Below are positions 2,031 to 7,019 of a stretch of 64,000 nucleotides of DNA, one piece after another. How positions within the stretch are numbered: position 1 is the first letter of the stretch; each line of letters opens with the position of its first letter. Location: the NCBI RefSeq assembly GCF_003334315.1, contig NZ_QOWR01000008.1; one strand, 5' to 3'. This DNA is from Escherichia coli. GTDB lineage: Bacteria; Pseudomonadota; Gammaproteobacteria; Enterobacterales; Enterobacteriaceae. The position numbers were made by a program, and so were the translations under genes. The notes beneath the pieces are model-generated. The model searched no databases. It saw nothing but the letters and a program-made list of their open reading frames with translations, and was not told the origin of the DNA.

Positions 2031-3764
2031 GTGAATATTCAGGCTCTTCTCTCAGAAAAAGTCCGTCAGGCCATGATTGCGGCAGGCGCGCCTGCGGATT
2101 GCGAACCGCAGGTTCGTCAGTCAGCAAAAGTTCAGTTCGGCGACTATCAGGCTAACGGCATGATGGCAGTTGCTAAAAAACTGGGTATGGCACCGCGACA
2201 ATTAGCAGAGCAGGTGCTGACTCATCTGGATCTTAACGGTATCGCCAGCAAAGTTGAGATCGCCGGTCCAGGCTTTATCAACATTTTCCTTGATCCGGCA
2301 TTCCTGGCTGAACATGTTCAGCAGGCGCTGGCGTCCGATCGTCTCGGTGTTGCTACGCCAGAAAAACAGACCATTGTGGTTGACTACTCTGCGCCAAACG
2401 TGGCGAAAGAGATGCATGTCGGTCACCTGCGCTCTACCATTATTGGTGACGCAGCAGTGCGTACTCTGGAGTTCCTCGGTCACAAAGTGATTCGCGCAAA
2501 CCACGTCGGCGACTGGGGCACTCAGTTCGGTATGCTGATTGCATGGCTGGAAAAGCAGCAGCAGGAAAACGCCGGTGAAATGGAGCTGGCTGACCTTGAA
2601 GGTTTCTACCGCGATGCGAAAAAGCATTACGATGAAGATGAAGAGTTCGCCGAGCGCGCACGTAACTACGTGGTAAAACTGCAAAGCGGTGACGAATATT
2701 TCCGCGAGATGTGGCGCAAACTGGTCGACATCACCATGACGCAGAACCAGATCACCTACGATCGTCTCAACGTGACGCTGACCCGTGATGACGTGATGGG
2801 CGAAAGCCTCTACAACCCGATGCTGCCAGGAATTGTGGCGGATCTCAAAGCCAAAGGTCTGGCAGTAGAAAGCGAAGGGGCGACCGTCGTATTCCTTGAT
2901 GAGTTTAAAAACAAGGAAGGCGAACCGATGGGCGTGATCATTCAGAAGAAAGATGGCGGCTATCTCTACACCACCACTGATATCGCCTGTGCGAAATATC
3001 GTTATGAAACACTGCATGCCGATCGCGTGCTGTATTACATCGACTCCCGTCAGCATCAACACCTGATGCAGGCATGGGCGATCGTCCGTAAAGCAGGCTA
3101 TGTACCGGAATCCGTACCGCTGGAACACCACATGTTCGGCATGATGCTGGGTAAAGACGGCAAACCGTTCAAAACCCGCGCGGGTGGTACAGTGAAACTG
3201 GCCGATCTGCTGGATGAAGCCCTGGAACGTGCACGCCGTCTGGTGGCAGAAAAGAACCCGGATATGCCAGCCGACGAGCTGGAAAAACTGGCTAACGCGG
3301 TTGGTATTGGTGCGGTGAAATATGCGGATCTCTCCAAAAACCGCACCACGGACTACATCTTCGACTGGGACAACATGCTGGCGTTTGAGGGTAATACCGC
3401 GCCATACATGCAGTATGCATACACGCGTGTATTGTCCGTGTTCCGTAAAGCAGAAATTGACGAAGAGCAACTGGCTGCAGCTCCGGTTATCATCCGTGAA
3501 GATCGTGAAGCGCAACTGGCAGCTCGCTTGCTGCAGTTTGAAGAAACCCTCACCGTGGTTGCCCGTGAAGGTACGCCGCATGTGATGTGTGCTTACCTGT
3601 ACGATCTGGCCGGTCTGTTCTCTGGCTTCTACGAGCACTGCCCGATCCTCAGCGCAGAAAACGAAGAAGTGCGTAACAGCCGTCTGAAACTGGCACAACT
3701 GACGGCGAAGACGCTGAAGCTGGGTCTGGATACGCTGGGTATTGAGACTGTAGAGCGTATGTAA
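2031..3764 (+). CDS. argS: Arginyl-tRNA synthetase
   Basis: 577-aa ORF with GTG start; [14 protein letters not shown]-terminus and class I synthetase HVGH motif. Confidence 0.97.
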
Positions 3765-3783
3765 TCGATTTTTCGTGAGAGTG

Positions 3784-3820
3784 AAGCCTGATCAGGGTTA
3801 CCTGATCAGGCTTTTTTATT
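3784..3820 (+). terminator. Rho-independent terminator of argS
   Basis: Hairpin gaagcctgatcagg/cctgatcaggctt followed by a T-run. Confidence 0.75.
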
Positions 3821-3940
3821 GCCATCTAAATGTATTCTGAAAATGGACATGCCATCGTTTTCTCACTGTTGGGTAAGAAGTCAGAAGCGTAATATTCGGC
3901 CCCAGGGAAACGATAACGGTTGAATTTAAGGAATACCGCA

Positions 3941-4429
3941 GTGTTTAAATTTCTTGTATTAACATTAGGCATTATCTCTTGCCAGGTTTACGCAGAAGAT
4001 ACGCTTATAGTAAACGACCATGACATTTCAGCCATCAAAGATTGTTGGCAAAAAAATTCAGATGATGATAGTGACATTAACGTGATCAAATCATGCCTGC
4101 GACAAGAATACAATCTCGTCGATGCGCAATTAAATAAAGCCTATGGTGAAGCTTATCGTTATATAGAACAAGTGCCACGCACAGGTGTAAAAAAACCTGA
4201 TACCGAACAACTTAACTTGCTTAAAAAATCACAGCGAGCCTGGCTGGATTTTAGGGACAAAGAATGTGAATTAATCCTTTCAAATGAGGATGTTCAGGAT
4301 TTAAGTGACCCTTATTCTGAATCAGAATGGCTCTCATGTATGATCATACAGACCAATACGCGAACTCGCCAGTTGCAGCTATACCGTAACTCTGAAGATT
4401 TTTATCCAAGCCCTTTGACAAGAGGATAA
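3941..4429 (+). CDS. yecT: YecT, predicted secreted protein of unknown function
   Basis: ORF 3920-4429; GTG at 3941 preferred because AAGGA lies 8 nt upstream; signal-peptide-like N-terminus. Confidence 0.75.
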   Translation: MFKFLVLTLGIISCQVYAEDTLIVNDHDISAIKDCWQKNSDDDSDINVIKSCLRQEYNLVDAQLNKAYGEAYRYIEQVPRTGVKKPDTEQLNLLKKSQRAWLDFRDKECELILSNEDVQDLSDPYSESEWLSCMIIQTNTRTRQLQLYRNSEDFYPSPLTRG

Positions 4430-4447
4430 TTCACATATTTTTGGCAT

Positions 4448-4489
4448 GTTTTGTTGCAAGCTATTCCTGATAAATAATTGCAACAAAAC
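4448..4489. other. Perfect 12-bp inverted repeat (gttttgttgcaa / ttgcaacaaaac) with 18-nt loop, between convergent yecT and flhE
   Basis: Read directly from sequence; T-run a few nt downstream on plus strand; possible terminator or protein-binding dyad. Confidence 0.4.
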
Positions 4490-4548
4490 ATCGAGCCTTT
4501 TTCACTGAGTTATTAAACATACTCGCGAGCGCGTAATTTTTTTGTCCT

Positions 4549-4941
4549 TCAGCGATAATTCACAATCACTTCATTACGTTGTACTTTCAGCGGCGGAATT
4601 AACCGCCCACCGCCAGGCACTTCCCAGATAAAGCGCAACGGTTCTGCTGCCGCTATACCGGAAAAGGCCACGGTGGTTCCGCTCTGCCCCTCTAATTCGA
4701 CACAACGAGATTGCGAACACAAGCGAACCCGCAGTCCTGAAGGTGTCGGGCCGATAAGCTGATAACGCCACGCTACCAGCGTCATCAATCCTGAAGCAGG
4801 TTGTCGCGTAGAAAGAGGCGCAGACGACATCGACTCACCGCGATGATTTAGCGTAATTCCTACACTACTTGCCTGCCACATCCCCTCCCCGGCGGCTTGC
4901 ACCAGCAGCGGAAACAATAATATTGCTAATAAGGTTCTCAT
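4549..4941 (-). CDS. flhE: Flagellar protein FlhE
   Basis: 130-aa ORF matching recalled FlhE; last gene of the flhBAE operon. Confidence 0.95.
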   Translation of the reverse strand: MRTLLAILLFPLLVQAAGEGMWQASSVGITLNHRGESMSSAPLSTRQPASGLMTLVAWRYQLIGPTPSGLRVRLCSQSRCVELEGQSGTTVAFSGIAAAEPLRFIWEVPGGGRLIPPLKVQRNEVIVNYR

Positions 4942-7019
4942 TATTTGCCGCCAATTGTCGCCGTCATGCGGATATGTCGGTTATCAGACAGTTCCAGATT
5001 CGACAGGACCACTAACTGCGGCAAGCTGCGGCGCAGGAAGCGAGACAATAATGGTCGCAGCGCGTGGTTCACCAACAATACTGGCGGCGCACCCAGCATC
5101 TCCTGACGGGATAGCGCTTCCTGAGTTTGCGCCAGTAAACGATCCGCCAGCCCTGGCTCCAGTCCTCCCCCGCCCTGCAGCGCCTGTAGTAACAAACGTT
5201 CCAGCGGTGTATCGAGGCCAATAACATGGACTTCATCTTTGCCAGGAAACCACTGCTGGGTAATCGCCCGTCCCAACGCCACGCGCACGACGGCGGTTAA
5301 TTCATGTGGATCGCTTTGGATGGGCGCATGTTCCGCCAGCGTTTCGAGAATGGTGCGCATATCGCGAATCGGTACTTTTTCATCGAGGAGATTTTGCAGC
5401 ACTTTATGCAGTGTGGTGAGCGTGACGACGCCAGGAACGAGATCTTCCGTCAGCTTTGGCATCTCCTGGGCGACGCGATCCAACAGCTGTTGCGCCTCCT
5501 GACGACCAAACAGCTCTGCGGCATGCTGGCTAATGAGGTGGTTAAGATGCGTTGCTACCACCGTGCTGGCCTCAACCACTGTGTACCCCTGAATCTGCGC
5601 CTGTTCTTTTAGCGCACTTTCAATCCAGATAGCATTCAGGCCAAATGCCGGATCGACGGTCGCCTCACCAGGTAACGTCCCGGCAGCGATTCCAGGGTTA
5701 ATCGCCAGCCAGCGCCCCGGATAAGCATCACCACTGCCAATCTCCACGCCTTTCATCAAAATGCGATAGCGGGCAGGTTGCAGATCCATATTGTCGCGAA
5801 TGTGCACCACTGGCGGCAGAAATCCCATCTCCTGGGCAAATTTCTTGCGGATACTGCGTATACGGCCCAACAACTCACCATCCTGCTGGAAATCGACCAT
5901 CGGGATCAGTCGATAACCCACTTCCATTCCCAGAGAATCTTCCAGTTGTACATCGTTCCACGTCGCTTCGACAACGGTATTATTCTCTGCCATTTTTACC
6001 GGTTTGGGTTCGGCAGGCGCTTTTTGTTCGCGTCCGCGTATCCACCAGGCCAGCCCGAGCAATCCGGCAGTGAACAGCAAAAATACCAGGTTCGGCATTC
6101 CAGGCACCAGGCCGAGTAAACCGAGCACGGCGGCGCTTAACAACATAACGCTTGGGTTACTGAAAAGCTGATTCACCATCTGCTCGCCAACATCCTGATC
6201 GGTGCTGACACGCGTAACGATGACCCCCGCGGCGGTAGAAATCACCAGCGCCGGAATTTGTGCCACCAGACCGTCGCCAATGGTCAATAGCGTATAACTT
6301 TCCGCCGCGTGTCCCATGCTCATGCCATGTTGCAGCACGCCGACCAGCAACCCGCCGACAACGTTAATGACCATGATGAGGATCCCGGCGATGGCATCGC
6401 CGCGAACAAACTTACTTGCCCCGTCCATTGAGCCGTAAAAATCGGCTTCCTGAGTCACTTCGGAGCGGCGTTTTTTCGCCTCATCTTCACCAATCAATCC
6501 GGCGTTAAGGTCGGCGTCAATCGCCATCTGCTTACCCGGCATACCATCGAGAACAAAGCGCGCACCCACTTCTGCGATACGCCCGGCACCTTTGGTAATG
6601 ACCATAAAGTTGATGATCACGAGAATGACAAACACCACGATACCGATAGCGAAATTGCCACCAACGAGGAAGTGACCGAACGCTTCGACCACCTTCCCTG
6701 CCGCCGCCGCGCCGGTATGCCCTTCCATTAAAATGATACGGGTTGAAGCCACGTTAAGTGCCAGACGCAACAGCGTGGTAAACAACAGAATGGTCGGAAA
6801 CGCAGCAAACTCAAGCGTGCGCTGGGTAAACATCGCCACCAGCAACACCATGATCGACAAGGCAATATTGAAGGTAAACAACAGGTCGAGTATGAATGCG
6901 GGCAGTGGCAGCACCATCATCGACAAGATCAACAGGATCAAAATCGGTCCGGCAAGGATCTGCCATTGTGTCGATTTCAGGTTTGCGGGCAGGCGCAGCA
7001 TCGCGGCCAGATTACTCAT
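4941..7019 (-). CDS. flhA: Flagellar type III export apparatus protein FlhA
   Basis: ORF 4941-7094; start moved to MSNLAAMLRLPANLK (692 aa) matching recalled FlhA. Confidence 0.95.
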   Translation of the reverse strand: MSNLAAMLRLPANLKSTQWQILAGPILILLILSMMVLPLPAFILDLLFTFNIALSIMVLLVAMFTQRTLEFAAFPTILLFTTLLRLALNVASTRIILMEGHTGAAAAGKVVEAFGHFLVGGNFAIGIVVFVILVIINFMVITKGAGRIAEVGARFVLDGMPGKQMAIDADLNAGLIGEDEAKKRRSEVTQEADFYGSMDGASKFVRGDAIAGILIMVINVVGGLLVGVLQHGMSMGHAAESYTLLTIGDGLVAQIPALVISTAAGVIVTRVSTDQDVGEQMVNQLFSNPSVMLLSAAVLGLLGLVPGMPNLVFLLFTAGLLGLAWWIRGREQKAPAEPKPVKMAENNTVVEATWNDVQLEDSLGMEVGYRLIPMVDFQQDGELLGRIRSIRKKFAQEMGFLPPVVHIRDNMDLQPARYRILMKGVEIGSGDAYPGRWLAINPGIAAGTLPGEATVDPAFGLNAIWIESALKEQAQIQGYTVVEASTVVATHLNHLISQHAAELFGRQEAQQLLDRVAQEMPKLTEDLVPGVVTLTTLHKVLQNLLDEKVPIRDMRTILETLAEHAPIQSDPHELTAVVRVALGRAITQQWFPGKDEVHVIGLDTPLERLLLQALQGGGGLEPGLADRLLAQTQEALSRQEMLGAPPVLLVNHALRPLLSRFLRRSLPQLVVLSNLELSDNRHIRMTATIGGK

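Follow-up and report, generated by a model that had tools for sequence, protein, structure and literature searches.

The inverted repeat between yecT and flhE of Escherichia coli as a probable one-directional, non-canonical terminator hairpin of yecT

The inverted repeat located between the convergent genes yecT and flhE in the Escherichia coli sequence analysed here (the whole stretch of 64,000 nucleotides, further referred to as the window) belongs to a known and ordinary kind of element: it probably represents the 3' stem-loop of yecT, working in one direction as a non-canonical intrinsic terminator, likely of weak-to-moderate strength, and as a stabiliser of the transcript 3' end. The hairpin starts at position 4443, 14 nt past the yecT stop codon (4427–4429) and on the same strand, and its termination efficiency may be low. 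The suggestion of a weak terminator, made in an initial sequence-only reading of this locus, fits the evidence obtained, i.e. a long, AT-rich and interrupted stem, a short U-run and no call by a consensus scan.

The perfect 12-nt arms gttttgttgcaa (4448–4459) and ttgcaacaaaac (4478–4489) had been placed correctly in that reading. The true repeat gained 2 nt per side and consisted of two perfect 14-nt arms separated by 18 nt (Table 1). No other perfect inverted repeat with arms of 14 nt or more and a loop of 3–30 nt occurred in the 64-kb window, and the mean number of such repeats expected by chance was 0.01 in 200 dinucleotide-preserving shuffles, only 1% of which contained any.

Table 1. Coordinates (window numbering) of the hairpin, its parts and the surrounding genes.
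Feature	Position	Strand	Remarks
Left arm ATGTTTTGTTGCAA	4446..4459	no strand	identical across all Escherichia alleles examined
Right arm TTGCAACAAAACAT	4478..4491	no strand	the only variant observed: A4487G (K-12 type)
18-nt spacer	4460..4477	no strand	core CTATTCCTGATAA (4461–4473) invariant; 4460, 4474 and 4476 variable
Complete hairpin	4443..4497	+	basal GGC/GCC, 14-bp main helix, inner 4-bp helix (4462–4465 / 4473–4476) and 7-nt apical loop; MFE and centroid
3-nt bulge CGA	4492..4494	+	CCA, GAA or GGA in other alleles
T-run (U5)	4498..4502	+	directly 3' of the basal helix; proposed release site of the yecT transcript
Upstream T-run	4438..4442	+	equals AAAAA past the hairpin on the - strand
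yecT (LprI/DUF1311 family)	3941..4429	+	hairpin 14 nt downstream
flhE, last gene of the convergent flhBAE operon	4549..4941	-	stop 51 nt from the hairpin base
Low-GC yecV-yecT islet carrying the hairpin	3768..4548	no strand	GC 37–40% vs 50–60% in the flanks

Calculation of the folding energy, which the sequence-only reading had proposed as a check, returned a stable hairpin: the + strand RNA between positions 4425 and 4515 (91 nt) folded with -27.2 kcal/mol (z = -5.7), and none of the shuffled controls was equally stable. The z-score of the + strand hairpin varied from -4 to -5.7 across the folds, and the hairpin by itself had a predicted energy of -19.7 kcal/mol on the + strand and -22.5 kcal/mol on the - strand. 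The 55-nt structure on the + strand included a 2x1 internal loop between the 14-bp helix and the inner helix, and its 7-nt apical loop was present only if the inner 4-bp helix was formed. At the base, GGC (4443–4445) paired with GCC (4495–4497) across the CGA bulge with a probability of 0.86–0.89 in this allele. The description of the T-run as displaced from the stem was accurate for the 12- or 14-nt arms only and did not hold for the full stem, whose GGC/GCC helix abuts the TTTTT; this basal helix accounts for the impression of displacement. If the basal helix forms, the U5 follows GCC without a gap, and in the other alleles the basal helices end 1–2 nt from the run.

A typical intrinsic terminator has a GC-rich stem of 5–14 bp, a loop of 3–8 nt and a U-rich tract starting 0–2 nt after the stem. 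The yecT element resembles the Rho-independent terminators of E. coli in the succession of a hairpin and a U-run a few nucleotides past the stop codon on the coding strand of the upstream gene, in folding far beyond that of shuffled controls and in the conservation of the stem. It differs from them in its stem, which is 17–21 bp long and AT-rich (7 of the 17 pairs before the inner helix are G-C), in the presence of an internal loop and of a 3-nt bulge located 3 bp from the U-run, and in having five U only. The AT-rich character of the stem is explained by the hairpin being a part of the AT-rich yecV-yecT islet. The consensus terminator scan did not call the hairpin, although it called the argS terminator (3783–3814), located 650 bp upstream, which has the textbook form with a 14-bp stem, a 4-nt loop and a T7 tract. 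The earlier view that the yecT element is not a textbook intrinsic terminator agrees with the evidence, considering its long AT-rich stem with an internal loop and a bulge, the run of five U only and the silent consensus scan.

On the + strand, the stem is flanked by T5 on either side. The sequence that comes after the hairpin on the - strand is AAAAAUAUG; it is free of a U-run, since the upstream T-run reads AAAAA beyond the hairpin in this direction, and this makes the element one-directional.

A scan of the genome collection with YecT recovered two useful outgroups, E. whittamii and Escherichia sp. E1V33, in which the gene order is the same. The arms together with GGC/GCC (34 nt) had zero changes relative to the window in both of them, while the divergence from the window in the same two genomes amounted to 11–15% in the argS-yecT spacer, 15–53% in the spacer between the hairpin and flhE and 7–9% at the third codon positions of yecT. 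The dyad is therefore kept, contradicting the lack of conservation which had been named beforehand as a ground for refuting its role. The RNAalifold consensus of seven distinct alleles included 21 pairs, with 99.3% of the cells paired. Double-sided compensatory changes were found in 0 of the 21 pairs among these seven alleles, and therefore conservation alone cannot separate a role at the RNA level from a role at the DNA level. In YecT homologues with approximately 60% identity located in other genomic contexts, the dyad was absent from the 3' flanks; a GTTGCAAG hairpin present in one such flank (L015) looks coincidental.

The variable positions were more informative in respect to the strand. 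Paired positions had undergone three transitions, A4487G, A4476G and A4474G, each of which turned a U-A pair into U·G on the + strand and would produce a C·A mismatch on the - strand. The K-12-type variant A4487G, the commonest E. coli allele in the sample, broke the symmetry of the DNA but kept a U·G pair, and it decreased the stability of the - strand hairpin to -18.8 kcal/mol with the + strand unchanged. In some strains, the combination of G4460T and A4476G extended the main stem by two Watson-Crick pairs. The base of the stem was realised in three ways depending on the lineage, i.e. as GGC/GCC with the bulge, as UUGG/CCAG with a bulged C, or as an extra C-G pair plus GCU/AGC; the GGC/GCC helix was swapped for the alternatives in the O157 and outgroup alleles, and each of the three solutions ended 0–2 nt from the T-run. 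The U5 run itself was retained in E1V33 and in every E. coli allele, and in E. whittamii it was degraded to GTTTAA. As far as can be judged from a small sample of allele sequences without strict covariation, this pattern is in favour of selection acting on an RNA hairpin of the + strand set against the U-run.

BglJ-RcsB activates yecT and H-NS/StpA exert partial repression on it (PMC3950696), and the gene is therefore practically not expressed in standard cultures. Adams et al. (2021), in their curated Term-seq lists, give no 3' end for either strand at 1,962,300–1,962,699, and flhE is not among the entries (PMC7815308; the NC_000913.3 coordinate equals the window coordinate plus 1,958,031). 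Since the 3' end of argS is also missing from these lists despite its textbook terminator (PMC7815308), and since yecT is silenced in such cultures, the lack of a listed end at the hairpin, which was the other ground for refutation named beforehand, is uninformative. The bicyclomycin experiments with K-12 in the same work revealed a single Rho termination region here, at 1,962,401 on the - strand and antisense to yecT (reads 30/26 versus 33/119, i.e. a downstream increase from 26 to 119; Rho score 4.16), whose position is coarse due to the 800-nt windows and the low read counts used in its definition (PMC7815308). It corresponds to window position 4370, which is 73 nt past the hairpin for a transcript coming from flhE. 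This indicates that it is Rho, and not the hairpin, that stops the flhBAE transcripts on the - strand after they have run past the hairpin. The gene yecV (-, 3806–3850, coordinates transferred from K-12) lies downstream of this Rho region on the same strand, and its 3' end overlaps the descending arm of the argS terminator hairpin on the + strand.

As a 3' stem-loop of yecT, the element would operate when BglJ-RcsB overcomes the silencing by H-NS/StpA and the gene is transcribed: RNA polymerase would pause on the U-run, the hairpin would close down to its base and the yecT transcript would be released, which would limit the read-through from yecT into antisense flhE. The converging flhBAE transcripts would not be ended by the hairpin and would be stopped by Rho further on.

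The same Rho region allows a different role of the dyad on the - strand, where the hairpin might protect the flhBAE message: the RNA terminated by Rho would be trimmed by 3'-5' exonucleases back to the stem-loop, which would then define the mature 3' end of flhBAE. Such a model of a protective 3' stem-loop was proposed for Rho-dependent transcripts by Dar and Sorek (2018; PMC6061677), and the yecT-flhE dyad resembles their stems in that it forms a stable hairpin on the - strand, lacks a U-run there and precedes a bicyclomycin-sensitive region. In stability, the - strand hairpin equals or exceeds the one on the + strand (-22.5 to -24 kcal/mol, z = -5.1), and the terminator scan of the - strand 3' of flhE in the islet-bearing strains gave no intrinsic terminator which could serve this operon. 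On the other hand, in contrast to the stems of Dar and Sorek (PMC6061677), no 3' end has been mapped at the base of this hairpin, Adams et al. listing none on the - strand, while the allele changes favour pairing on the + strand: both the K-12-type allele and the loop variants place C·A mismatches on the - strand. Besides, the position of the Rho region is coarse, and the islet-free strains use another hairpin. The protective role on the - strand is therefore rather unlikely, although it could hold in addition to the role in yecT.

The other hairpin belongs to the junction seen without the islet. The latter, which includes yecV (14 codons), yecT and the hairpin, extends from just past argS to just before the flhE stop and was present in approximately 3,560 of the 5,426 complete E. 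coli genomes, i.e. it was missing from about one third. The islet-free genomes have 52 bp between the convergent argS and flhE, and this spacer contains a single GC-rich hairpin of 13 bp with AAAA on one side and TTTTTT on the other (L002/L003, 2955–3015). It is conceivable, albeit similarly doubtful, that the arrival of the islet split flhBAE from the hairpin which it had shared with argS, so that flhBAE, the operon of the flagellar export gate, is now ended by Rho within antisense yecT and the dyad serves as an exonuclease stop which sets its 3' end. If true, a single dyad would serve two convergent transcripts by two mechanisms, and both the stability of the flhBAE mRNA and the antisense silencing of yecT would vary among the E. 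coli lineages.

The palindrome may also be thought of as a functionless relic, which came with the islet and persists because the compared Escherichia lineages are close kin. The yecT genes of the outgroups have diverged by about 4–5%, and zero changes in 34 nt are only moderately unlikely (approximately 1% at 12% divergence); moreover, yecT is often frameshifted or interrupted, and in one strain IS1 is inserted in the loop. However, the flanking intergenic DNA is far more diverged (by 11–53%), and all the changes in or beside the stem preserve or extend the pairing, which makes a relic distinctly unlikely.

Searches for relatives of the element did not connect it with any family. The region 3500–5500 produced only chance-level matches to Rfam families (E-values of at least 0.45). 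A REP/BIME-like repeat or a MITE was rejected, because the sequence occupied one place per E. coli genome (two only through a self-match of the palindrome). The matches in the plasmid collection were misfiled chromosomal pieces only and the phage collection had none, while four matches of the 10+10 arm pattern in viral contigs were unrelated palindromes, that is chance.

A site functioning at the DNA level is a further rival, be it the operator of a regulator acting as a dimer or tetramer or a site of recombination connected with the islet; a protein-binding palindrome had been suggested in the sequence-only reading. The centres of the half-sites are 32 bp apart, i.e. about three helical turns, the arms are perfectly conserved without compensatory change and the 13-nt core of the spacer is invariant. 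The spacer sequence TATTCCTG matches the RcsB half-site tatTCctA in seven of eight positions, and yecT is a target of RcsB-BglJ (PMC3950696). This match is, however, post hoc, as the motif likenesses were found among several tried. The majority allele A4487G breaks the symmetry of the DNA and keeps the RNA pairing, and there are no target-site duplications, no further copies in the genome and no relatives among mobile elements. The arm heptamer GTTGCAA resembles the CytR octamer, GTTGCATT. CytR half-sites are spaced by 2–3 bp, and CytR-like half-sites are unsupported, considering the 18-bp spacing here and the frequency of GTTGCAA in the window (14 found versus 17.7 expected). A sigma-54 promoter was also discarded: TGGCATGTTTTGTTGCA (4442–4458; TGGCA-N7-TTGCA) has GG-N11-GC, one base more than the GG-N10-GC of TGGCAC-N5-TTGCA, such a match arises in 30% of the shuffles, and the sigma-54 ChIP tables of Bonocora et al. 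have no site at the hairpin. With the wrong sigma-54 spacing, the lack of GTTGCAA enrichment and the symmetry-breaking A4487G, nothing was found in support of a protein-binding palindrome, and a DNA-level site is very unlikely. Known operators do not, to our knowledge, have such perfect 14-bp arms separated by 18 bp.

A bidirectional terminator needs an A-run upstream of the stem. The dyad shares with bidirectional intrinsic terminators of convergent genes the convergent position and a symmetrical stem folding on both strands, and flhE has no other hairpin plus U-run downstream of it on the - strand; yet a true two-way intrinsic terminator of both yecT and flhBAE, as suggested in the sequence-only reading, is highly improbable, because the arrangement on the + strand is T5-stem-T5 and the - strand RNA continues after the hairpin into AAAAAUAUGUG, so that a U-tract is not available on both strands, because bicyclomycin raises the - strand transcription beyond the hairpin, pointing to Rho-dependent rather than intrinsic termination, and because a two-way arrangement is exemplified by the AAAA-stem-TTTTTT of the islet-free argS/flhE junction.

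Several further observations were made on the islet and its surroundings. The window, which is E. coli but not K-12, was 100% identical to strain 510016 and 98.3% to K-12 over 401 bp. A tiny second hairpin, CGC-GAGC-GCG followed by TAA and T7, is located at 4524–4543 on the + strand, immediately ahead of the flhE stop, in a region folding at about -3.5 kcal/mol; its pair C4526-G4531 is replaced by U-A in Escherichia sp. E1V33, with both sides changed, and E. whittamii carries a deletion of this segment. In strain CAVP819, IS1 abuts the hairpin loop and the homology to the window restarts at approximately 4466 (L009, 1–740). In strain EC06, IS1 follows a truncated yecT and is itself followed directly by uspC (L004, 2642–4690), which implies that the whole flagellar and chemotaxis region from flhE to flhDC has been lost. 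Truncated yecT alleles with products of 108–110 residues were common (L016–L018, 2501–2833), one cluster comprising 131 member sequences, and the downstream hairpin was intact in these strains. The truncations are presumably frameshifts.

The YecT relatives with approximately 60% identity were found in type VI secretion clusters (L014, 2501–2986; L015, 2501–2986; L021, 1853–2338), where they are positioned downstream of proteins with CHAP or Pesticin domains and immediately upstream of the genes for PAAR and IcmF/TssM proteins. The DUF1311/LprI domain has been cited as a type VI secretion immunity domain (PMC12135965, PMC12981562), and by analogy yecT of E. coli may be an orphan immunity gene.

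Overall, the hairpin is of little importance beyond annotation, where it provides a plausible 3' boundary for yecT. The flhBAE operon of the islet-bearing E. coli, among them K-12, is left without an intrinsic terminator of its own. Perhaps more useful than the hairpin itself are the strain-variable islet silenced by H-NS and the YecT protein with its relatives in the type VI secretion clusters.
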